Of a DNA stretch of 64,000 nucleotides, positions 48,177 to 58,113 are shown one piece after another; position 1 is the stretch's first letter, and each line of letters opens with the position of its first letter. This DNA is from Armatimonadota bacterium. Lineage in GTDB: Bacteria; Armatimonadota; SYMT01. The translations under genes were made by a program, and so were the position numbers. The stretch is taken from positions 112,738 to 176,737 of the forward strand of contig JBKBRF010000007.1 of the NCBI GenBank assembly GCA_046292385.1, written 5' to 3'. Below the pieces are notes generated by a model. The model was not told where the DNA came from, did not search any database, and was given only the letters and a program-made list of their open reading frames with translations.

Positions 48177-48494
48177 ATGGTCGCAGCTCCCCGACCGGAA
48201 CAGGACTGTGCCCAGAAGCTGAAGGTACTGGCGGACCCGACCCGTCTCTCCGTGCTGGAGATCCTGGGTGAGGGGCCGATGCACGTCGGCGAGATGAACC
48301 AGGTGCTCCACCTGGAGCAGAGCCTGCTCTCCCACCACCTGAAGGTGCTCCGGGAGGCGGGGCTGGTGGAGGCGGTGCGCGACGGCAAGGCGGTGCTCTA
48401 CCGCCGTACCGACGCGGAAGAGGCGGGCGCCGGGGCGATCGATCTCGGGTGTTGCCGGCTGGAGTTCCCCGGCCGGGACCCCTCCGATGCGTAG
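48177..48494 (+). CDS. ArsR/SmtB family regulator with C-terminal vicinal Cys (DLGCC)
   Basis: LKVLADPTRL..QSLLSHHLKVLREAGLV..RDGK. Confidence 0.92.
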   Translation: MVAAPRPEQDCAQKLKVLADPTRLSVLEILGEGPMHVGEMNQVLHLEQSLLSHHLKVLREAGLVEAVRDGKAVLYRRTDAEEAGAGAIDLGCCRLEFPGRDPSDA

Positions 48495-49329
48495 CCGCCT
48501 CTTGACCCTGCTCCTGGCGCCGCTCGCCCTGGCGGCGCTCTCCGGCTGCGGCGGCGCCGCCCGGGGGAGCACCGGCGATCGACTGGTCCTGACCGGCTCC
48601 AGCACCATCGCGCCGCTGGCGGCGGAGATCGCGAAGCGGTTCGAGGAGCGGAACCCGGGGGTGCGAGTCGACGTGCAGACCGGCGGCTCCTCCCGCGGGA
48701 TCAGCGACGCCCGGCAGGGCCTCGCGGACATCGGCATGGTCTCCCGCGCGCTCAAGCCGGAGGAGCGCGACCTCCAGGCGTTCCCGATCGCCCGCGACGG
48801 GATCTGCCTGATCGTCCACCGCGACAACCCGGTCCGCAGCCTGACCGACGAGCAGGTCCGCGCCCTCTTTACCGGAAAGGTCGACCGCTGGAGCGCGGTG
48901 GGCGGGGCGGAGGCTCCGGTCACCGTCGTCCACAAGGCGGAGGGGCGCTCGACCCTGGAGCTGTTCCTGGCCCACTACCGGCTGGAGAACCGGGAGATCG
49001 ACGCGGACGTGGTGATCGGCGACAACGAGCAGGGGATCAAGACGGTCGCCGGCAACCCGCACGCCGTCGGCTACGTCTCGATCGGCGCCGCGGAGCACCA
49101 CGTGCGGCAGGGCACCCCGCTCAAGCTGCTGGCGGTCGGCGGGGTAGAGCCAAGCTCCGAAAACGTTCGCCGCGGCGACTATCCGCTCTGCCGCCCCCTC
49201 CACCTGGTAACGCGGAGCGCGCCCGCGGGCACCGCGAAGGCGTTCCTCGACTTCGCGCGGTCGCCGGAGGTGCGAGACCTGGTGGAGCAGCAGTCGTTCG
49301 TGCCGCTGCCGGACGGGGATGCAGAGTAG
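48487..49329 (+). CDS. pstS: Phosphate ABC transporter substrate-binding lipoprotein
   Basis: Lipobox LSGC, TGSSTIAP, GGSSRG, DIGMVSR. Confidence 0.9.
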   Translation: MRSRLLTLLLAPLALAALSGCGGAARGSTGDRLVLTGSSTIAPLAAEIAKRFEERNPGVRVDVQTGGSSRGISDARQGLADIGMVSRALKPEERDLQAFPIARDGICLIVHRDNPVRSLTDEQVRALFTGKVDRWSAVGGAEAPVTVVHKAEGRSTLELFLAHYRLENREIDADVVIGDNEQGIKTVAGNPHAVGYVSIGAAEHHVRQGTPLKLLAVGGVEPSSENVRRGDYPLCRPLHLVTRSAPAGTAKAFLDFARSPEVRDLVEQQSFVPLPDGDAE

Positions 49330-50182
49330 CGTGCCGCGGCGGGCCGACCGGCTGCTCGTCCTCACGGCACGCGCCGCCGCGCTGATCTCCGCGGCGGTGC
49401 TGCTCTTCATGCTGCTCTTTCTCGCCCGGGAGGCGCTGCCGGCGCTGCGCTCTCCCGGGGTAGGGGCGTTCCTGACCGATCGCGCCTGGCATCCGACGGA
49501 GGGCGAGTACGGCATGCTGCCGATGGCGGCGGGGACGCTGCTCGCGATGGCGGGCGCGCTGCTGCTGGCAATTCCGCTCGGCGTGCTCTCGGCTCTCTTC
49601 TGCTGCTTCTACGCCCCGGCGCCGCTGGCGGGAATCTACCGCAGCCTGCTGGGGCTGCTCGCGGGGATCCCGTCGGTCGTCTTCGGCTTCTGGGGGCTCG
49701 TCACGCTGGTGCCGCTGCTCAACCAGGTGCAGCCTCCCGGCGCGAGCCTGCTGGCCGCCGCCCTGATCCTGGCGCTGATGGTGCTGCCGACCCTCGCCCT
49801 CACGGCGGAGGCGGGGCTCCGCGCCGTGCCGCGGGAGTACCTCGCCGCGGCGGCCGCGCTGGGGCTCTCCCGCCCGACCACGATCTACCGGGTGGCGCTG
49901 CCCGCCGCCCGCTCCAGCCTGGCAACCGCGGTGGTGCTCGCCGCCGGGCGCGCGCTCGGGGAGACGATGGCGGTGCTGATGGTCGCCGGAAACGTGGTCC
50001 AGGTGCCGCGGAGTCTCTTCGACCCGGTCCGCACCCTCACCGCCAACATCGCGCTGGAGATGGCGTACGCGACGAGCGCGCACCGCTCCGCGCTCTTCGT
50101 GAGCGGCCTGGCGTTGGCGCTGCTGGTGGGCGCGCTGGTGCTCGCCGCGGAGACGCTCTCCCGGAGGCCCGCCCGTGGTTAA
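49319..50182 (+). CDS. pstC: Phosphate ABC transporter permease
   Basis: LAGIPSVVFG, GRALGETMAV, RTLTANIALEM. Confidence 0.92.
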   Translation: MQSSVPRRADRLLVLTARAAALISAAVLLFMLLFLAREALPALRSPGVGAFLTDRAWHPTEGEYGMLPMAAGTLLAMAGALLLAIPLGVLSALFCCFYAPAPLAGIYRSLLGLLAGIPSVVFGFWGLVTLVPLLNQVQPPGASLLAAALILALMVLPTLALTAEAGLRAVPREYLAAAAALGLSRPTTIYRVALPAARSSLATAVVLAAGRALGETMAVLMVAGNVVQVPRSLFDPVRTLTANIALEMAYATSAHRSALFVSGLALALLVGALVLAAETLSRRPARG

Positions 50183-51026
50183 GCCGCGCCGTGCGCTCGC
50201 GGAGCCACTGACGGCGCTCGCCGCCTGGGGCGCGGCGGCGGTGGTCTGCCTCGTCTTCCTCTGGCTGGCGGCGGAGGTCGCCCGCGCCGGGGTGGGGCGC
50301 CTCTCGCTCCCGTTCCTCATCGCGCCCGAGGAAGACGCAGGCCGCAGCGGGGGCATCGGCCCGATCCTCGTCTCCACCGGGCTGATCCTGGCGGTGAGCA
50401 TGGGGGCTTCAGTCGTGATTGGTCTGCCCGCTGCCGTGCTGCTGGCGGAGCTCTCCGGTGCGGGGCGCTTCGGGGCGGCGGTGCGGCGGAGCCTCGACCT
50501 CCTCGCGGGGATGCCCTCCATCGTCTTCGGGCTCTTCGGCAACGCCTTCTTCTGCGGCGCGCTCGGGCTGCGGTTCTCCATCCTCTCCGGCGGGCTCACC
50601 CTCGCCTGCATGGTGCTGCCGCTGCTGATCCGCACCTCGGAGGAGGCGCTCCGCGGCGTCCCCGCCGCCTACCGGGAGGCCGCCGCGGCGCTGGCGCTCT
50701 CCCGGACCACCCTGCTCTTCCGGGTGCTGCTGCCGGCCGCGCTGCCGGGGCTGCTGGTCGGTCTGGTGCTCGGCACCGGCCGCGCGCTGGCGGAGACCGC
50801 CGCCCTCGTCTTCACCAGCGGCTACGTCACGCGGATGCCGGGGTCGCTCCTCGATTCCGGCCGGGCGCTCTCCGTGCACATCTACGACCTCTCCATGAAC
50901 GTCGCGGGCGGCGACGCGAGCGCCGGCGCCTCCGCGCTGGTGCTGATGGTCCTGATCCTGGCGCTGAACGGCGCGACCGAGTGGCTCGCCGGCCGCTGGC
51001 GGCGGTCCGGAGAGGCGCGGCCGTGA
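50175..51026 (+). CDS. pstA: Phosphate ABC transporter permease
   Basis: GGIGP, LAGMPSIVFGLFG, GRALAETAAL. Confidence 0.92.
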   Translation: MVKPRRALAEPLTALAAWGAAAVVCLVFLWLAAEVARAGVGRLSLPFLIAPEEDAGRSGGIGPILVSTGLILAVSMGASVVIGLPAAVLLAELSGAGRFGAAVRRSLDLLAGMPSIVFGLFGNAFFCGALGLRFSILSGGLTLACMVLPLLIRTSEEALRGVPAAYREAAAALALSRTTLLFRVLLPAALPGLLVGLVLGTGRALAETAALVFTSGYVTRMPGSLLDSGRALSVHIYDLSMNVAGGDASAGASALVLMVLILALNGATEWLAGRWRRSGEARP

Positions 51027-51799
51027 GCGAGCCGCGCGTGCTGCTGCAGGCGACCGACCTGGCGGTCGCGTACGGAAAACGGACCGCCCTGCGCGGCGTG
51101 ACGCTGCCGGTCCGGGAAGGGGTGGTTACCGCCCTGATCGGCCCTTCCGGCTGCGGGAAGACCAGCTTCCTGAGCTGCGTCAACCGGCTCACCGACCTGG
51201 TCCCCGGCTGCCGGGTCTCCGGTAGCTTGCGGCTCGCGGGGGTAGAGCTGCTCGACCCCGGCCTCGACCTCCCCTCGCTGCGGCGGCGAGTCGGGATGAT
51301 CTTCCAGCGCCCGAACCCGTTCCCGCTCTCGATCCGCCAGAACCTGCTGCTCCCGCTGCGGGAGCACCGCCTCGGCACGCCGGCGGAGTGCGAGGCGCTG
51401 GCGGAGCGGGCGCTGCGGGACGTCGGCCTCTGGGAGGAGGTGAAGGACCGCCTCGACGCCCCCGCCCTTTCCCTCTCCGGCGGGCAGCAGCAGCGCCTCT
51501 GCTTCGCTCGCGCGCTCACCCTGCGGCCGGAGGTACTGCTCCTGGACGAGCCGTGCAGCGCCCTTGATCCGCTGGCGACCGGCGTGGTGGAGGAGCTGAT
51601 CCTGCGGCTCCGCGGCGAGTACACGGTGGTGATCGTTACCCACAACCTGGCGCAGGCCCGCCGCCTGGCGGATGACGCGGCGCTCTTCTGGCTCCGGGAC
51701 GGCGCCGGCTGCCTGGTGGAGCACGGCCCCGCCGCCCAGCTCTTCGAAGCGCCGCGCCAGCCGGAGACGGCGGACTACGTCCGGGGAGTGCGAGGGTAG
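51023..51799 (+). CDS. pstB: Phosphate ABC transporter ATP-binding protein
   Basis: GPSGCGKT, FQRPNPFP, LSGGQQQRLC, DEPCSALDP. Confidence 0.95.
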   Translation: MSEPRVLLQATDLAVAYGKRTALRGVTLPVREGVVTALIGPSGCGKTSFLSCVNRLTDLVPGCRVSGSLRLAGVELLDPGLDLPSLRRRVGMIFQRPNPFPLSIRQNLLLPLREHRLGTPAECEALAERALRDVGLWEEVKDRLDAPALSLSGGQQQRLCFARALTLRPEVLLLDEPCSALDPLATGVVEELILRLRGEYTVVIVTHNLAQARRLADDAALFWLRDGAGCLVEHGPAAQLFEAPRQPETADYVRGVRG

Positions 51800-51848: not shown

Positions 51849-52856
51849 ATGGAGTACGTCAACCTGGGCCGCGCGGGCGTGAAGGTTTCCCGGCTCTGCC
51901 TCGGCACGATGATGTTCGGCGGTCCGACCGACGCGGCGGAGAGCGCGCGCATCCTCGGCCGCGCGCTGGATGCCGGAATCAACTTCGTCGACACGGCGAA
52001 CATGTACAACGCGGGCGAGTCGGAGGTGGTGACCGGCCGCGCCATTGCGAGCCGCCGGGCGGAGGTGGTGCTCGCCACGAAGGCCCGCAACCCGATGGGA
52101 ACGGGGCCGAACGACCAGGGGCTCTCCCGCCTGCACCTGATCCGCGCGTGCGAGGAGAGCCTGCGCCGGCTCGGGACCGACTACGTCGACCTCTACTACC
52201 TCCACGCGCCGGACTACGGCACGCCGCTGGAAGAGTCGCTGGAGGCGATGGAGAAGCTGGTCCGGGACGGCAAGGTGCTCTATCCCGCCTGCAGCAACTA
52301 CTACGCCTACCAGGTGGCGCAGATGCTCGGCATTCAGGAGCGGCGCGGCTTCACCCGCCTCGCCTGCGTCCAGCCGCTCTACAACCTGGTGAACCGGGAG
52401 ATCGAGGTCGAGCTGCTCCCCTGCTGCCGCGACGAAGGCCTGGGGGTGGTGGTCTACTCGCCGCTCGCGCGGGGCGTCCTCACCGGCAAGTACCTCCCCG
52501 GGCAGCCGCCGCCGGAAGGCAGCCGCGCCGCCCGCGGCGACCGCCGCATTCACCAGACGGAGCTGCGCGAAGAGAGCTTCGAGATTGCCCAGCAGCTCCG
52601 CCCGCTCGCGGAGCGGCACGGGGTCCCGCTCTCGCAGCTCGCCCTCGCGTGGACCCTCGCCAACCCGCTCGTCACCAGCGCCATCGTCGGGCCCCGCACC
52701 CTGGAGCAGCTCGAGGACGGCCTCGCCGCCCTCGAGGTGAAGCTGACCGCGGAAGACGAGCAGGCCGTCAACGAGCTGGTCCCGCCGGGCTGGAAGACGG
52801 GCCGCGGCTACACCGATCCGAACTATCCGGTGCAGGGCCGGCCCGCGCTCCGCTGA
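51849..52856 (+). CDS. Aldo/keto reductase
   Basis: VSRLCLGTM, DTANMY, SLRRLGTDYVDLYYLH, YSPLARG. Confidence 0.95.
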   Translation: MEYVNLGRAGVKVSRLCLGTMMFGGPTDAAESARILGRALDAGINFVDTANMYNAGESEVVTGRAIASRRAEVVLATKARNPMGTGPNDQGLSRLHLIRACEESLRRLGTDYVDLYYLHAPDYGTPLEESLEAMEKLVRDGKVLYPACSNYYAYQVAQMLGIQERRGFTRLACVQPLYNLVNREIEVELLPCCRDEGLGVVVYSPLARGVLTGKYLPGQPPPEGSRAARGDRRIHQTELREESFEIAQQLRPLAERHGVPLSQLALAWTLANPLVTSAIVGPRTLEQLEDGLAALEVKLTAEDEQAVNELVPPGWKTGRGYTDPNYPVQGRPALR

Positions 52857-52868
52857 CGGAGGGGCCGG

Positions 52869-54173
52869 TCACATGAAGTTCGGCGTGTGCATCTCGCTCA
52901 TCTTGCGGGCGAGATCGACCGGAACCCCGGCCTGCGTGAGGCGCTGCACGCGGTTGTCGGCCATGCGCTGGTAGAGGGCGCGGACTTTCTCCACGCCGGC
53001 CGACATCTGCGCCGGGCTGGCGCCGCCGCCGCCGAGCACGGCGAGCGCCTCCATCACGAACGGGGTCGCTCCGGTGGTGGCGGAGATGGCGTCCGCCCGG
53101 GCCTCCACCGCCTCCATCAGGCGGCCGAGGTAGTCCGGGTGCCGCTCCAGCTGGTACTTCAGGTGCGCCACGCCGTAGGCGACGTGCCGCGCCTCGTCCT
53201 GCCGCGCGCGCTGAACCACGTCCCGCGTTACCGGATCCGGGGCGTGCTGCTCGCAGTAGCGGAGCAGGTCGAGGAAGGTGCCTTCGCCGAGGACGTGCAG
53301 CAGGAAGCTGGAGTTGAAGTAGTCTTCCTGGATCAGCAGGCTGAAGAGCGACCACTCCGTGGCGGCCGACGCGTACTGCAGACCGCCGCCGTTGGCGAGG
53401 GCGCGCTTGGTGAACGCCTCGATGTGGCGGGCCTCGTCGTTCACGACGGTGGCGAGGAAGAGCACCACCTCCGTGAACTGCGGGTTGATCTGCGGCATGA
53501 ACTTGCTGGGGATGTAGAGGGCGGAGTACTCGTTCTCCGCCAGGAACGTCATGATCTGGCAGACCGCCCTCTCCACGTCCTCATCCAGCTTCGGCAGCTC
53601 CCCCCACGCGATCGAGGTGGAGGCGTCCCACTGCGCCGCCTTCGCCTGCTCGTAGAGATCGGCGATGTTGTCCGCCCAGACGTCGTCCTTGCGGTTGAGG
53701 GCGAAGCCGTAGTCCGGCATTCCCGGCTCCGCCACCGCCCCGCGCGGGACGAAGCCGAAGTAGGTGGGCGCCTCCTCCGGCACCTCGCCGACCCGCCCGA
53801 CGAACCAGTCGCGGATATCGACGCGCCGTCCGTCGCGCCTCGGCAGCTCCACACCCCAGTCCGGCTCGCCCCAGGCGCTGGTACCGGGACCTTTGCGGAC
53901 GAGGTACTTGATCCGGTCGCCGCCGTCCAGCGCCGTCAGGAACTGGTTCTTCGTCATGCGGCACCAGGCGGGGAGGTCCTGGCGCACGCTGATCTCCGTG
54001 CTGTCGACCTCCAGCACCTGCCCCTGTTCGAGCTGGTTCATCGCCCGGCGGATGACGAGCAGCAGGCCGGTGCCGCAGTCGAGGTCGCCGCCGTCGACCA
54101 CCAGGTTGGGAGTCACCCCGATCACGGAGAACTCGTCGGCCGGTAGGGAGTTAGGGTCTTCGCGTGGGGACAT
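52869..54173 (-). CDS. TusA/SirA-like sulfur-carrier domain fused to a ferritin-like di-iron domain
   Basis: DGGDLDCGTG..DLPAWCR (TusA); ENE..DEARH..EGTF..DEARH (di-iron ligands). Confidence 0.85.
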   Translation of the reverse strand: MSPREDPNSLPADEFSVIGVTPNLVVDGGDLDCGTGLLLVIRRAMNQLEQGQVLEVDSTEISVRQDLPAWCRMTKNQFLTALDGGDRIKYLVRKGPGTSAWGEPDWGVELPRRDGRRVDIRDWFVGRVGEVPEEAPTYFGFVPRGAVAEPGMPDYGFALNRKDDVWADNIADLYEQAKAAQWDASTSIAWGELPKLDEDVERAVCQIMTFLAENEYSALYIPSKFMPQINPQFTEVVLFLATVVNDEARHIEAFTKRALANGGGLQYASAATEWSLFSLLIQEDYFNSSFLLHVLGEGTFLDLLRYCEQHAPDPVTRDVVQRARQDEARHVAYGVAHLKYQLERHPDYLGRLMEAVEARADAISATTGATPFVMEALAVLGGGGASPAQMSAGVEKVRALYQRMADNRVQRLTQAGVPVDLARKMSEMHTPNFM

Positions 54174-54233
54174 CGGGTACTGCTTTCGGTTGGGGGCTGC
54201 GGGGGCGGTGAGTGGACGGTCTTGCGGGAGGAG

Positions 54234-54388
54234 GCGTATTGCGTATCGAGTATTGCGTAGCGGAGCGCTGGTCCCGCTTTACCTGACGTCGTGCCGCGCG
54301 AAGAGCTCCAATTCACGCTTCGCCCGGCACGACGTAGCGGTCGAGCGGTAGAGGCATCTCGCTACGCAATACTCGATACGGAATACGC
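54234..54388 (-). mobile_element. Gene-less (MITE/REP-like) copy of the CGTATTG palindromic element
   Basis: 29-bp terminal inverted repeat (1 mismatch) and inner 18-bp inverted repeat (1 mismatch); colinear with 28181-28331. Confidence 0.75.
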
Positions 54389-54389
54389 G

Positions 54390-54752
54390 CTAGTAACTCA
54401 GGCTCGCCGCTCCCGAAGTCAGGAACTCCACCGCTTTCGCGCCGCCGACGATCACCGCGCCGTCGACGAGCTTCTCTTCGTCCAGGCCGCGCTTCTTGAA
54501 GCAGGGGGAGCAGACGTAGATCGTGCCGCCGAACTCGGCGAAGTCGGCCATCAGCTCCTTCAGCGGCTTGAAGCCCTCCTCGTGGACGTCGTCCGCGTAG
54601 CCCTGCTCGGAGAGACGCACACCCTCCGTGCTGAGGAAGACGACCGTCTCGACATCCGAGGCGACGGCGGCGTTGGCGACCACGAAGGCGACGGTCGCCT
54701 TGTCGGTGTTGTCTTTCGCGTAAGAGAGGGAGATCAGCAGCTTTCCGGCCAT
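54390..54752 (-). CDS. DsrE family protein
   Basis: KATVAFVVANAA..VFLSTEGV..IYVCSPC..GAVIVGG. Confidence 0.9.
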   Translation of the reverse strand: MAGKLLISLSYAKDNTDKATVAFVVANAAVASDVETVVFLSTEGVRLSEQGYADDVHEEGFKPLKELMADFAEFGGTIYVCSPCFKKRGLDEEKLVDGAVIVGGAKAVEFLTSGAASLSY

Positions 54753-54773
54753 GAGGGTCCTTTCTTCCGTAAC

Positions 54774-55319
54774 TCAATCCTGCTTGCGGCGAATGAAGTA
54801 GCTCTCGTCCTCGGTGGGGCCGGCCAGGAGCGTGTGGCCGGTAAGCCGGCACCAGCTCGGGATGTCGGCCTCCGCGCCGGCGTCCCGGGCGACCAGCTCC
54901 AGCACCTCGCCGGGATCGAGCTTCCGGATCGAGCGCATCAGGAGCACCATCAGGTCGCCGCAGCCCGCCTCTTCCGCGTCGACGCGGAGCGCCGGGGTGG
55001 GAAGCTCTTCCGCCGGGGAGAACAGCTCCGGCCGGAGCCACTCCGGCGGGCTATTCGAGTGCTCCAGGCGGCTGGGGCAGCAGGGAGACTGGCCGTCCCG
55101 GTCGCAGATCTTCGCCTTCCGCCAGTCCCGGCGGTAGCAGTCCCGGCGGATCAGGTAGTTGCCGACCAGCTCGCACAACTGCTCCGGGGTGGAGCCCAGG
55201 CCCTCCCCGAGGCACCGGAGGCAGCGGCAGGCCCCCTTGCCGGCGAGCACCCGGCTGATGACCTCCTGACGCCCGCAGATCGGCTCAGCACACCGGTCAC
55301 AACGCCGTTCCTCTGCCAC
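54774..55319 (-). CDS. Cys-rich N-terminal domain + TusA-like domain
   Basis: CDRC, CRCLRC, CCPS; DAEEAGCGDL..DIPSWCRLTGH. Confidence 0.82.
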   Translation of the reverse strand: MAEERRCDRCAEPICGRQEVISRVLAGKGACRCLRCLGEGLGSTPEQLCELVGNYLIRRDCYRRDWRKAKICDRDGQSPCCPSRLEHSNSPPEWLRPELFSPAEELPTPALRVDAEEAGCGDLMVLLMRSIRKLDPGEVLELVARDAGAEADIPSWCRLTGHTLLAGPTEDESYFIRRKQD

Positions 55320-55653
55320 TGCTACCGCCCACCCATCCGGCCGTTCGCTTTCATCCTATCCTTCGTTCCCGAGAACGGTAGCACTGCTCCTTCACTGCGG
55401 CGCATCGAAAGTTCCTATGGAGCGGCCGGCTGCCATTGAAACACCTTCTGGTGCAACTCCCTAAATCGAAAACACCCCCGTGCTCCGCCCGCAGGCATCA
55501 GAAAACGCGATGCGCCATATCGAGGACTCTGCGGTCGCTGAGTCCAACCAGCACCGGAGGGCTGCCCTGGCCGCCTGTCAACCTGGCGCTGCCCGGTGCG
55601 GCGCTCCAGTCATCATCAGTGAGCCGTCTTCCGTTGGGACGCGGCGGGAGTGT

Positions 55654-56775
55654 ATGGAATTGAGAAACGGATTGTCGATCGGGCGGGTCGTCACCGCCTC
55701 ACTGGCCGTGGCGGCGCTCTGCGGGCCGGCGCGGCACGCGCACGCCCAGGGGTGAGTGGTCAATCGCCAAACCGCGCCCGTGCTTGGCGCGGCTGACCTG
55801 GGACCGTATCTTGAAAAGGGAGAGTGGCAGCTCGGTGCCACTTACCGCACCTTCCGCGCGGACAAGCAGTACACCGGGACGCGCCTCAACCCGCTGGTGA
55901 CGGCACTCAAGACCAACGTCATCAGCGAGCTCGACATGCTCGACCTGGGGGTGACCCACGCCTTCAGCCGGCAGTTGAACGTCACCCTGGGCATTCCGAT
56001 CGTCCTCTACGCCAGCTCCTCCCGGGGGCTGCCGTCTACGGTCGCCGGCAGTCCGCGCTTCGTTCACAGCGCGGAGGGGCTCGGCGACATGACGCTGGTC
56101 GGGCGCTACTGGCTGCTCGACTGCGACAAGCACCAGCACGGCAACGTCTCGCTCGGGTTGGGCGTGAAGTTCCCGACCGGCAACTCGAACGTGCGCGACC
56201 GGTTCCCGGATGCCACGGGCGCCAACGAGCGGCTGCGGCCGGTCGACCAGTCGATCCAGCTCGGCGACGGCGGCTGGGGGGTCATCTTCGACCTCCAGGC
56301 GTTCAAGCAGGTGGGGAGCGCCACCGTGTTCCTCCAGGGCACGTACCTGGCGAACCCCCGGGGCGAGAACGACACGCTTTCCCCGCCGGCGTTCCTGAGT
56401 CCGGCAGGCCGGAAGGCCGTGCCGCGCTCGCTGCGGTTCAACACGGTGCCGGACCAGTACCTCGGACGCGTGGGCATCACTCACCCGGTGCCGGGCGTGC
56501 GGGGACTCAACGCGCTGATCGCCGGGCGCATCGAAGGCTCGCCGCGGAACGACCTCTTCGGCGACACCGTCGGCTTCCGCCGGCCGGGCTACGGCATCGC
56601 CATCGAGCCGGGCCTGATCTACACCCTGCCGAACAACCAGACCACGCTCTCTCTGAGCGTGCCGGTGACGCTGCAGGTGAACCGGCAGGCGGTAGCCGGC
56701 GTGCCGGGCGACGCCACCTTCGCGGACTATTCCATCTTCGCGTCGGTGACGCACCGCTTCGGCGGCAAGAAGTAG
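55654..56775 (+). CDS. Outer-membrane beta-barrel (MetA-pathway/transporter-like) with an in-frame UGA at codon 34; candidate selenoprotein
   Basis: Signal peptide 55654-55746 is in frame with the 339-aa ORF; single TGA at 55753-55755; GLGDMTLVGRYW, LGVKFPTG, QLGDGGW, terminal THRF. Confidence 0.75.
55758..55798 (+). promoter_or_regulatory. Candidate bacterial SECIS hairpin
   Basis: GGTCA/TGACC lower stem; CCGCGCC-CGTGCTT-GGCGCGG upper stem-loop, with the loop 23 nt after the UGA. Confidence 0.6.
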
Positions 56776-56801
56776 GGCCAGGTGGCGGACCGGGCTCTAC
56801 G

Positions 56802-56836
56802 ACGGCCTCTCCCAAAACTGGGAGAGGCCGTGTTTT
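56802..56836 (+). terminator. Intrinsic terminator
   Basis: ACGGCCTCTCCCA-AAAC-TGGGAGAGGCCGT then GTTTT. Confidence 0.75.
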
Positions 56837-56930
56837 CTAAGGAGGTCCCCCGGCGCGGGTCCGGAATGGTAAAGTGTGAGGTTTCAGAGCTGCGGCCGGA
56901 TCAACCCGGCGAGAGGCTGGAGCGCGAACG

Positions 56931-57251
56931 ATGCTGCGAGCACTCCTCATGCTCCCCAACTGGGCGGCCCGGCCGGTGACAGCGCTCTCCGTGCTCGCCA
57001 GCGCCGGCACCGTCTACTGGTGCTCGATCCTGGCGACCGACTACGCGCGGGAGCTTCACCCGTGGTGCGGTACGGGCGCGGACCGGATCGCCGGTCTGCT
57101 CGGCGGGGTGGTGCCGGCGAGCTTCCTGGTGCCGGCGGTCGGCTGGCTGCTCTGCCGGGGCAACCCGCGGCTCCGCCGGATAGCCCGCTGCGCCACACTC
57201 GCGTCGATCGCGGCGTGGGCGACGGTGCTCACGTGCATCCGCTGGGCCTGA
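56931..57251 (+). CDS. Small membrane hypothetical protein
   Basis: Three hydrophobic segments; GGAG upstream. Confidence 0.55.
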   Translation: MLRALLMLPNWAARPVTALSVLASAGTVYWCSILATDYARELHPWCGTGADRIAGLLGGVVPASFLVPAVGWLLCRGNPRLRRIARCATLASIAAWATVLTCIRWA

Positions 57252-57264
57252 CGGCCGGGGCGGG

Positions 57265-58113
57265 TTACTTGCGCCCGCGATTGCCGGAGCGCTGGGCCGG
57301 CTTGTCGAAGAGCAGCACGTACTCGTGCTTGAAGATGTAGAAGCCGCCGCGGAGGGCGCGGTACCGCCAGAGGTTGCCGGTGCGGCCCTTGCCCACCTCG
57401 TTGCCCTCGATGTTCTTCACCACGATGGAGCGGGTGCGGAATCCGGCCTCGTTCATCACTCGCATGCACTCGAAGCCGAGCGGGATCAGCTCGCCCGCGG
57501 AGTACTTGTCCCCGATCACCACCACCGCGAAGCGGCCGGGGCGGAGCAGGTTGTAGGCGCGGTCCGCCACCCGGCGGAAGCCGTCCAGGAACCCCTCGGT
57601 GCCGTCCGCGTTGGAGAGGTCCTCTTCGCGGTCGCTGAAGCGGATGATGTCGTGGTACGGCGGGTGGAGCACCGCGAGATCGACGTGCTCCCGCTCCCAG
57701 CCGTGCAGCACTTCCCGGACCCGCACCTCCGTCTCCGGGCTGCCGCTGTCGCCGCAGAGCACGGCGGCGCGGCTGCCGTCGTCGCCCAGCTTCGCGCGGA
57801 CGTGCTCCGCCAGCTCCGGCTTCAGCTCCACCCCGATGCAGCGCCGCCCCAGACGGAGCGCCTCCACCGCGCTGGTGCCGGAGCCGAGGAAGAGATCGAG
57901 CACCACGTCGTCCTCCCGCGTGAAGCGGGTGAACGCCTGGGTGGCGATCTGCGGCACGAAGTTGCCGTGGTACTCCAGCGCGTGCCCGTTCCCACGCGCG
58001 CGGGAAGGGATGAGCCAGAGCGAGTCGGTCCAGACGTCGTCCAGCTCCTTCCAGCGGGTGAGGTCGAGGTCGTTGTAGGGAACGGTGGGGGCGAGCGGCT
58101 TACGGGGTTTCAC
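57265..58113 (-). CDS. Orphan amino-methyltransferase (N4/N6 DNA MTase or Trm11-like)
   Basis: YHGNFVPQI, LDLFLGSGT, GVEL, HPPY. Confidence 0.85.
   Translation of the reverse strand: MKPRKPLAPTVPYNDLDLTRWKELDDVWTDSLWLIPSRARGNGHALEYHGNFVPQIATQAFTRFTREDDVVLDLFLGSGTSAVEALRLGRRCIGVELKPELAEHVRAKLGDDGSRAAVLCGDSGSPETEVRVREVLHGWEREHVDLAVLHPPYHDIIRFSDREEDLSNADGTEGFLDGFRRVADRAYNLLRPGRFAVVVIGDKYSAGELIPLGFECMRVMNEAGFRTRSIVVKNIEGNEVGKGRTGNLWRYRALRGGFYIFKHEYVLLFDKPAQRSGNRGRK

Follow-up and report, generated by a model that had tools for sequence, protein, structure and literature searches.

We have analyzed a stretch of 64,000 nucleotides (nt) from an Armatimonadota genome (GenBank assembly GCA_046292385.1, contig JBKBRF010000007.1, positions 112,738 to 176,737 of the forward strand). 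This whole stretch is called the window below, and positions are counted from its first letter. The region 55654-56775 is very probably a single gene coding for an exported outer-membrane beta-barrel, in which an in-frame UGA would be decoded as selenocysteine (Sec) through SelB and tRNA-Sec, directed by a hairpin located shortly downstream. That the product is a selenoprotein has strong comparative support and can be held with high confidence, and the predicted fold, a 12-stranded barrel, is well supported by structural modeling. A further proposal, namely that the Sec sits on a redox-active arm served by a partner of the TlpA type, is tentative, and we consider it possible rather than probable.

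Once the TGA at 55753-55755 is read as Sec, the frame is uninterrupted from the ATG at 55654 to the TAG at 56773-56775. Translation from this ATG gives MELRNGLSIGRVVTASLAVAALCGPARHAHAQG, followed by the TGA and then, in frame, by GTG GTC AAT; the barrel open reading frame (ORF) located 3' of the TGA has 339 codons, up to the TAG that ends at 56775. The original prediction, made by reading the letters, had described a signal peptide in frame with a barrel ORF devoid of its own, with one TGA between both, and all these coordinates were confirmed in the sequence. A search of the genome recovered the stretch as a single match that contained "1 TGA". The database protein identical to that of the window (P0002, 339 amino acids) starts with MVNRQ, i.e., one codon past the TGA.

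The comparative support comes from the column that follows the QG dipeptide. Searching with the read-through product, we found 1929 relatives at E <= 0.001 from 7999 candidates scored. Among the best 120 of these 1929 relatives, 40 show QGC right after a signal peptide, and 80 start downstream of the column, 38 of the latter at exactly one residue past it. This is the pattern expected for shortened entries, since gene callers would halt at a TGA. The alignment with full-length Cys homologues extends over the whole protein, signal peptide and C-terminus included, and in 26 of them Q32, G33, C34 and R38 are invariant, C34 being the sole invariant Cys. We then compared 159 related loci from two public collections, and the column was occupied solely by TGA (87 loci) or a Cys codon (72), as had been anticipated for homologues. 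The species-representative genome collection provided 80 of these loci (30 TGA and 50 Cys) and the metagenome collection 79 (57 TGA and 22 Cys). Two of the 30 genome TGA loci (L026 and L033) belong to genomes flagged as unpublished, so that 28 TGA loci are left without them. The single exception to the motif is L093, with HGC in place of QGC. The start "QGCVAIR", which the original prediction had given for related barrels, is indeed present in Bacteroidota homologues (e.g., L061 and L065).

When 61 genomes of the same phylum were searched (its own included), seven had a match, and exactly one TGA was found in 9 of the 12 matched places. The QG_ column holds TGA in L012, L013, L015, L016, L018, L020, L021 and L023, and Cys in L017 and L019. 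One of these loci (L013, C54:1581-2651) is a second TGA-form copy in the genome of the window, with 50% identity, sharing both the QG-TGA column and the hairpin; this genome has also a fragment of 203 codons (L014, C2:15639-16178) that matches residues 137-320 only. Contigs from two other studies (X2, covering 55562-56362, and X3, covering 55659-56157) have the TGA unchanged and differ by one other letter each, elsewhere. The TGA is thus not confined to one assembly, being carried by loci of relatives, by metagenome loci and by both contigs. A tree of 160 distinct sequences, from which the N-terminal 25 columns had been left out, requires no fewer than 12 changes between Sec and Cys. Tandem arrays of TGA-form barrel genes were also observed, three in a row in the genome of a relative (L020, L022 and L023, G002 contig C287:3089-6924), and one metagenome contig carries two such genes (L132:481 and L132:1735).

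These data bear on two other explanations of the TGA. If it were a nonsense mutation or an assembly error, the gene would be dead; the annotation-style ORF starting past the TGA and the unremarkable energy of the hairpin would agree with that. But the TGA recurs at the same column in 87/159 loci of several phyla, in the second copy of the same genome and in the contigs of the two other studies, both of its flanks are open and conserved, and the synonymous constraint described below is found in TGA forms only, so that we consider a dead gene practically excluded. The UGA could also act as a stop, giving a peptide of 33 residues and a separate signal-less barrel initiated at the GTG at 55756. 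The GTG lies immediately after the TGA and 80/120 of the best database homologues are annotated in this shortened form. However, nothing interrupts the Cys forms between signal peptide and barrel, and many TGA forms continue after the TGA with ATC or ATT, which are unusual starts. Besides, outer-membrane beta-barrels need an export signal to reach their membrane, and a signal-less one could not get there. Two separate products are thus very improbable, and the reading of a single gene with a Sec codon is preferred.

The hairpin was examined in detail. Its upper stem is formed by CCGCGCC (55772-55778) paired with GGCGCGG (55786-55792), enclosing the loop CGTGCTT (55779-55785). The stem is located 16 nt past the TGA; for the loop, which has a G as its second letter, the distance from the A of the TGA is 23 nt. 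The lower arms GGTCA (55758-55762) and TGACC (55794-55798) are present in the window, and this lower stem showed no conservation in the relatives. We aligned 84 distinct TGA-form sequences, ungapped, over 54 nt. Stem columns 20-26 with 34-40 could pair in 92.6% of the cells; the shuffles gave 83.6%, and sliding the 3' partner lowered the value to 22-50%. Five of the seven pairs vary on both sides (52 cells in total), and the observed covariation score was reached by 0/500 shuffles; compensatory changes include GCG...GGC to GCA...GGT and GCG...GCG to ACG...GTG. The loop has the consensus C-G-U-G-N-U-Y across 78 canonical TGA-form sequences, and the other 6 of the 84 (L018, L020, L023, L045 and L167 among them) have other hairpins. 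The codons under the hairpin point in the same direction. In the TGA forms (n = 78) Pro is CCC in 78/78, Val is GTG in 75/78 and Gly is GGC in 74/78 and GGT in 4/78, whereas in the Cys forms with the same Pro and Gly spacing (n = 12) the Pro codon is CCG ten times and CCC twice, with no uniform Gly codon. Since synonymous sites are frozen in TGA forms only, the constraint acts on the RNA, and only where a TGA is present.

The general model of Zhang and Gladyshev for the bacterial selenocysteine insertion sequence (SECIS) reportedly involves a stem-loop just past the UGA, with an early G in the apical loop. The 7-bp stem 16 nt past the UGA, the loop CGUGNUY and the covariation fit this model, for which the original prediction had already noted the position of the loop and its G. 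Like in the SECIS of the E. coli fdhF type, there is a stem-loop within the coding sequence soon after the UGA and a G early in the apical loop; unlike in that type, the barrel family has its own loop consensus, and no Rfam family matches it. A search of 55300-57000 against Rfam at E <= 10 gave only sub-threshold matches to aspS and flg-Rhizobiales, neither of them on the hairpin. A regular expression for similar hairpins preceded by a TGA matched the genome at 36 places, of which only those in the two barrel copies have a plausible reading frame, so that the hairpin is not a general motif of this genome.

Two side observations concern these elements. L024 (6058-6110), from a gammaproteobacterial metagenome-assembled genome (MAG) in which SelA is found, is a Cys (TGC) form that retains the canonical hairpin sequence GCGCCCGTGCTTGGCGCG, and it looks like a recent switch from Sec to Cys. 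Separately, an element of ~50 nt, TGAGTSCCCGSAGGGGSACTTCGTGCCGTGGTTGCCGCGGTTTCAACCGC, is repeated in at least eight contigs of the genome, including C2, C8, C13, C18, C24, C25 and C51 (e.g., C18:95295), and could represent either a dispersed or a CRISPR-like repeat (clustered regularly interspaced short palindromic repeat).

The Sec machinery that the original prediction proposed to look for is complete in the genome. We found selA (486.8 bits), selB (367.5 bits versus a cut-off of 242), selD (362 bits, with an in-frame TGA of its own) and a tRNA-Sec gene (C11 87434-87532) that adjoins selD-selA. The hairpin after the TGA of selD holds GUGCU in its loop, likewise the barrel hairpin. TGA is the stop of 4/11 Pfam-supported neighbour genes of the window and has therefore not been reassigned; a genome-wide reassignment, which we had considered, is ruled out by these stops. 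SelA was surveyed in the genomes of 50 of the 80 genome loci, comprising every TGA form (30) and 20 of the 50 Cys forms. A strong match appeared in 27/30 TGA-form genomes (25/28 without the two unpublished ones) and in 3/20 of the sampled Cys-form genomes. Leaky decoding of UGA occurs in bacteria, and the codon could in principle be read by a near-cognate tRNA (Trp or Cys) or suppressed, without any Sec. Against this stand the hairpin with its fixed spacing and conserved loop, the recurrence of the loop motif in the selD hairpin, the complete Sec machinery and a residue that alternates with Cys only and never with Trp. We judge such a read-through to be improbable, if a little less so than the two explanations discussed above, and decoding as Sec is retained.

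The features of the locus are collected in Table 1.

Table 1. Features at and next to the putative selenoprotein barrel gene (positions in the window)
Feature	Position	Strand	Details
Predicted selenoprotein precursor, complete coding sequence	55654..56775	+	373 codons + TAG; UGA at codon 34 read as Sec
Shine-Dalgarno-like GGGAG	55646..55650	+	3 nt upstream of the ATG at 55654-55656; read in the sequence, putative function
Predicted signal peptide, 31 residues	55654..55746	+	n-region with R4 and R11; hydrophobic core VVTASLAVAALCG; c-region PARHAHA
Candidate UGA Sec codon	55753..55755	+	residue 3 of the predicted mature protein Q-G-U-V-V-N-R
N-terminal arm of the predicted mature protein	55747..55821	+	25 residues ahead of the first beta-strand; Sec3, near-invariant Arg7
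SECIS-type hairpin	55772..55792	+	7-bp stem, 7-nt loop; overlaps the T-A-P-V-L-G-A codons
Beta-barrel body, 12-stranded (predicted)	55822..56772	+	AlphaFold2 model, Foldseek
Intrinsic terminator	56802..56841	+	13-bp stem, 4-nt loop, T-run; terminator scan
TusA-domain protein, 181 amino acids, Cys-rich N-terminus	54774..55319	-	Pfam TusA E = 2e-9; divergent from barrel
DsrE-like protein, 120 amino acids, no visible signal peptide	54390..54752	-	Pfam DsrE E = 5e-15
TusA + ferritin-like/R2-like fusion, 434 amino acids	52869..54173	-	Pfam TusA, weak DUF455

Given the strong intrinsic terminator, the barrel gene appears to be monocistronic. The signal peptide, MELRNGLSIGRVVTASLAVAALCGPARHAHA with Q-G coming next, is of the typical type, and cleavage by signal peptidase I is predicted after AHA; the relatives have small residues at -3 and -1 ahead of the invariant QG. 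The cleavage site and the lipobox were assessed by eye. As a different kind of product we considered a lipoprotein with the Sec lipidated at +1. The lipobox consensus [LVI][ASTVI][GAS]C comes directly after the hydrophobic core. Here -2 is an invariant Gln, -3 is A, G or S, and 5-8 polar residues are found between the core and the QG. On the shape of the signal peptide and the mismatch with the lipobox, this candidate was rejected.

The AlphaFold2 model, obtained from an alignment of 120 rows, had a mean predicted local distance difference test score (pLDDT) of 93.9 and a predicted template modeling score of 0.90, with 12 long strands, the first one starting at mature residue 26. Foldseek gave FapF as best match (E = 3e-13), and also the COG4313 channel 4rl8_A (E = 4e-9, template modeling scores 0.60/0.75). 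When the family profile was compared with the PDB, FapF was the sole solved structure matched (E = 4.4e-10, profile positions 59-212). FapF, the amyloid-secretion barrel of Pseudomonas (5O65, 5O67), is thus the best match by fold and is also found by profile, but the identity is only 12-14%, and neither at the window nor among the 78 neighbour ORFs that we scanned were there neighbours of the fap type. To our knowledge FapF has not been reported with Sec. The COG4313 channel is Pput2725 of P. putida F1 (4RL8; PF13557, Phenol_MetA_deg), similar to the window protein in having a 12-stranded barrel whose strand 1 is preceded by a segment at the periplasmic end. In PMC4493636, ~14 N-terminal residues of Pput2725 are described as being folded inside the lumen, which they enter from the periplasmic side, and as almost closing the channel, its relatives TcpY and SphA as having longer N-termini, and COG4313 channels as thought to carry hydrophobic molecules. 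Unlike Pput2725, the window protein has an arm of 25 rather than ~14 residues and the invariant motif QG[C/U]xxxR. Besides, Pput2725 is not a selenoprotein, and the word "cysteine" is absent from that same text (PMC4493636). By analogy with these channels, the Gln-Gly-Sec arm may be located in the lumen or at the periplasmic mouth of the barrel. A selenoprotein among outer-membrane beta-barrels has been predicted before, in the MtrB/PioB group (GSU2204 family, NF041027; tables of PMC9312934 and PMC13188914). That is a different barrel family, described there as CXXCH-containing, while the Sec of the window protein would be mature residue 3, and the window protein (P0001) matched no NCBIfam family at E <= 0.1, NF041027 included.

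The tentative model for the function of the arm would work as follows. SelB and tRNA-Sec would decode the UGA at 55753-55755 guided by the hairpin at 55772-55792, and cleavage by signal peptidase would leave a mature N-terminus Gln-Gly-Sec, with the Sec on the 25-residue arm at the periplasmic end of the 12-stranded barrel. The lone Sec (Cys in other lineages) would be a redox-active nucleophile, reacting with a molecule that enters the barrel or lies at its periplasmic mouth; we read it so because it alternates with Cys and there is no second invariant Cys. Once reacted, it would become a selenenyl adduct or a selenenylsulfide, and an exported CxxC reductase of the TlpA/ResA type might regenerate the selenol. 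ResA/TlpA proteins are reductants of the cell envelope, and genes of this kind adjoin the barrel in other genomes, which is why a cycle of reduction is proposed. Specifically, a gene for a TlpA/ResA-like exported CxxC protein adjoins the barrel in 27/168 loci, which belong to several subfamilies, mostly directly downstream and on the same strand, and one database protein (P0055, 520 amino acids) combines signal peptide, QGC, barrel and thioredoxin domains.

Several observations weigh against this picture, both in its decoding and in its functional part. The hairpin has a minimum free energy of -20.5 kcal/mol (z = -0.50), equaled or improved by 48/200 shuffles of this 70% G+C DNA. As energy alone is no better than chance, the case for the hairpin has to rest on conservation and covariation, and since the stem overlaps the conserved peptide APV[LF]GA, part of that conservation is at the level of the protein. 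No SelA match was found in 3/30 TGA-form genomes, which are MAGs of unknown completeness, and the independent-pairs test of TGA versus SelA had 4 contrasts and no statistical power. The split largely tracks phylogeny, and we count the presence of SelA as something that Sec decoding requires and not as independent proof. In the structural model, residues 1-20 of the arm have a low mean pLDDT (~49-63), for which reason the placement of the arm leans on the analogy with Pput2725. The window protein had no match in Pfam (E <= 0.01, and also E <= 1) or in NCBIfam (E <= 0.1). PF13557 was matched at E <= 1 by 12/26 full-length homologues, the best at 1.9e-7, and is precomputed on some database relatives. 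With no match for the window protein and weak ones for its homologues, we have treated the barrel as a separate family in the same barrel superfamily and not as a member of PF13557. There is no TlpA-like gene beside the window barrel, nor in 141/168 loci, many of which are short. The neighbourhoods vary by lineage, and the family may therefore lack a single substrate.

This variation is considerable. In the window, the TusA, DsrE-like and TusA-fusion genes form an operon-like set (52869-55319, minus strand); the fusion product has a weak NCBIfam match to R2-like ligand-binding oxidase, and the TusA-domain protein at 54774..55319 may be linked to the barrel. A TusA-ferritin-like copy with 86% identity adjoins the barrel in L015, and DsrE homologues do so in L024, L025 and L108, where the fusions are TusA-OsmC (L024 and L025) and TusA-MetE-like. 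In other lineages the neighbours are two-component systems, multihaem cytochromes, DUF3179 and DUF5818 proteins and a TonB-type receptor. The multihaem cytochrome genes appear in two clusters of 8 loci each, and their products match the ExtKL model far below its cut-off.

Some other neighbours are recorded here as observations in their own right. At lower coordinates than the TusA/DsrE set, the window contains an ABC transporter of phosphate or oxyanion type (PBP_like_2 binding protein, two permeases and an ATPase, 48487-51799, plus strand), followed by an aldo/keto reductase (51849-52856), and just past the barrel terminator there is an N6/N4 DNA methylase gene (57265-58113, minus strand). 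A DUF3179 protein is directly beside the barrel in seven loci (L169:5251-6435 and six more); PF11376 is given as a selenoprotein family in a 2026 review (PMC13188914). The Cys forms of Bacteroidota (Cytophagales and Saprospiraceae, ~20-31 loci) have a conserved set of neighbours, with a membrane protein of 180 amino acids upstream (L054:893-1432), a protein of 301 amino acids without family match (L081:7185-8087) and a PAP2-superfamily lipoprotein of 515 amino acids (L087:8136-9680).

As to what the arm would react with, we rank chalcogen species first, oxidants second and soft metals third, each of them unlikely on its own, and leave the remainder unassigned. In the first option, the Sec arm would capture a chalcogen species (e.g., elemental sulfur, polysulfide or selenium), opening or binding it as an Se-S(n) adduct within a channel suited to hydrophobic molecules, and hand it inward to sulfur carriers. 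With its lone Cys/Sec on a flexible arm, the barrel is reminiscent of the sulfur carriers that have a single Cys. TusA, DsrE and TusA-fusion genes lie beside the barrel in the window, L015, L024, L025 and L108, from two phyla, and there are the multihaem cytochromes of the two clusters. The hydrophobic molecules that COG4313 channels are thought to pass (PMC4493636) would also suit this option, and the crossing of the outer membrane by sulfur species is stated as unknown in bioRxiv 10.1101/2025.11.18.688581. On the other side, TusA/DsrE neighbours were found in only 4/167 other loci, and as no export signal is seen here in the TusA/DsrE proteins, they would not meet the arm directly. No enzyme of sulfur oxidation or reduction appeared among the 78 neighbour ORFs scanned, and the cytochromes fall far below the ExtKL cut-off. 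In its most explicit version, to which we give the same low probability, a "swinging" selenol in a channel for hydrophobic molecules would attack S0, polysulfide or Se0 and ferry Se-S(n) across the outer membrane, and the TlpA-type reductase would release the chalcogen towards the TusA/DsrE carriers. Were this correct, the barrel would be the outer-membrane protein with a thiol that has long been postulated to mobilise insoluble sulfur, and no selenoprotein before it would have acted as the reactive part of a transporter.

A peroxidatic Sec comes next. It would reduce hydroperoxides or other oxidants at the outer membrane, in the manner of GPx or 1-Cys peroxiredoxins, and a partner with a thioredoxin fold would recycle it. 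The single Sec/Cys with an adjacent thioredoxin-fold CxxC protein (AhpC-TSA/Redoxin families) would fit this possibility, and so would the TusA-OsmC fusions of L024 and L025. But neither a known peroxidase fold nor a catalytic triad is seen in the barrel, and the neighbours match reductases of the ResA/TlpA type better than peroxidases; we regard this option as rather unlikely. The least likely of the three is that the arm binds a soft metal, e.g., Cu(I), Hg or Cd, at the mouth of the channel, one of the roles that the original prediction had suggested together with chalcogen capture. Many catalogued selenoproteins are predicted metal binders according to PMC13188914. Against a metal ligand, the arm offers a single chalcogen ligand, with no second invariant Cys in the 26 full-length homologues, and a Cys within the first 24 residues was found in 29/88 TGA forms. 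Besides, the scan of 78 neighbour ORFs gave no match to heavy-metal-associated, MerR, Cop or Czc families.

Two reviews of prokaryotic selenoproteins (PMC9312934, 2022, and PMC13188914, 2026) have in their tables no entry for PF13557, COG4313 or QGU. The text of the BSepDB paper contains neither "outer membrane" nor "barrel", its family table being in a supplement outside this check, and "barrel" is absent from the text of the Haft preprint. Literature searches combining selenoprotein with MetA-pathway, and selenocysteine with outer membrane, SECIS or signal peptide, returned nothing on the barrel family, the groundwater-MAG and deep-Sep supplements lying outside their coverage. As far as these catalogues go, the barrel is a new and widespread family of predicted selenoproteins of an unusual kind, with a standard recoding mechanism.

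The family is common in soil Acidobacteriota, Armatimonadota, Planctomycetota and Verrucomicrobiota and in some Gammaproteobacteria. As 80/120 of the nearest entries are shortened at the Sec codon and have lost the export signal, it would have been mis-annotated and left out of selenoproteome counts. The catalogued bacterial selenoproteins are almost all soluble redox enzymes, in contrast to an outer-membrane channel that would carry a selenol at its tip. Such a selenol, beside genes of exported reductases in 27/168 loci, would point to reactive chemistry at the outer boundary of the cell. Since the family occurs naturally with Sec and with Cys, and has switched at least 12 times, it lends itself to comparisons of what is gained by Sec. 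Finally, the barrel is a candidate for the handling of sulfur or selenium species, or of oxidants, at the outer membrane, a step that for sulfur is unresolved according to bioRxiv 10.1101/2025.11.18.688581.

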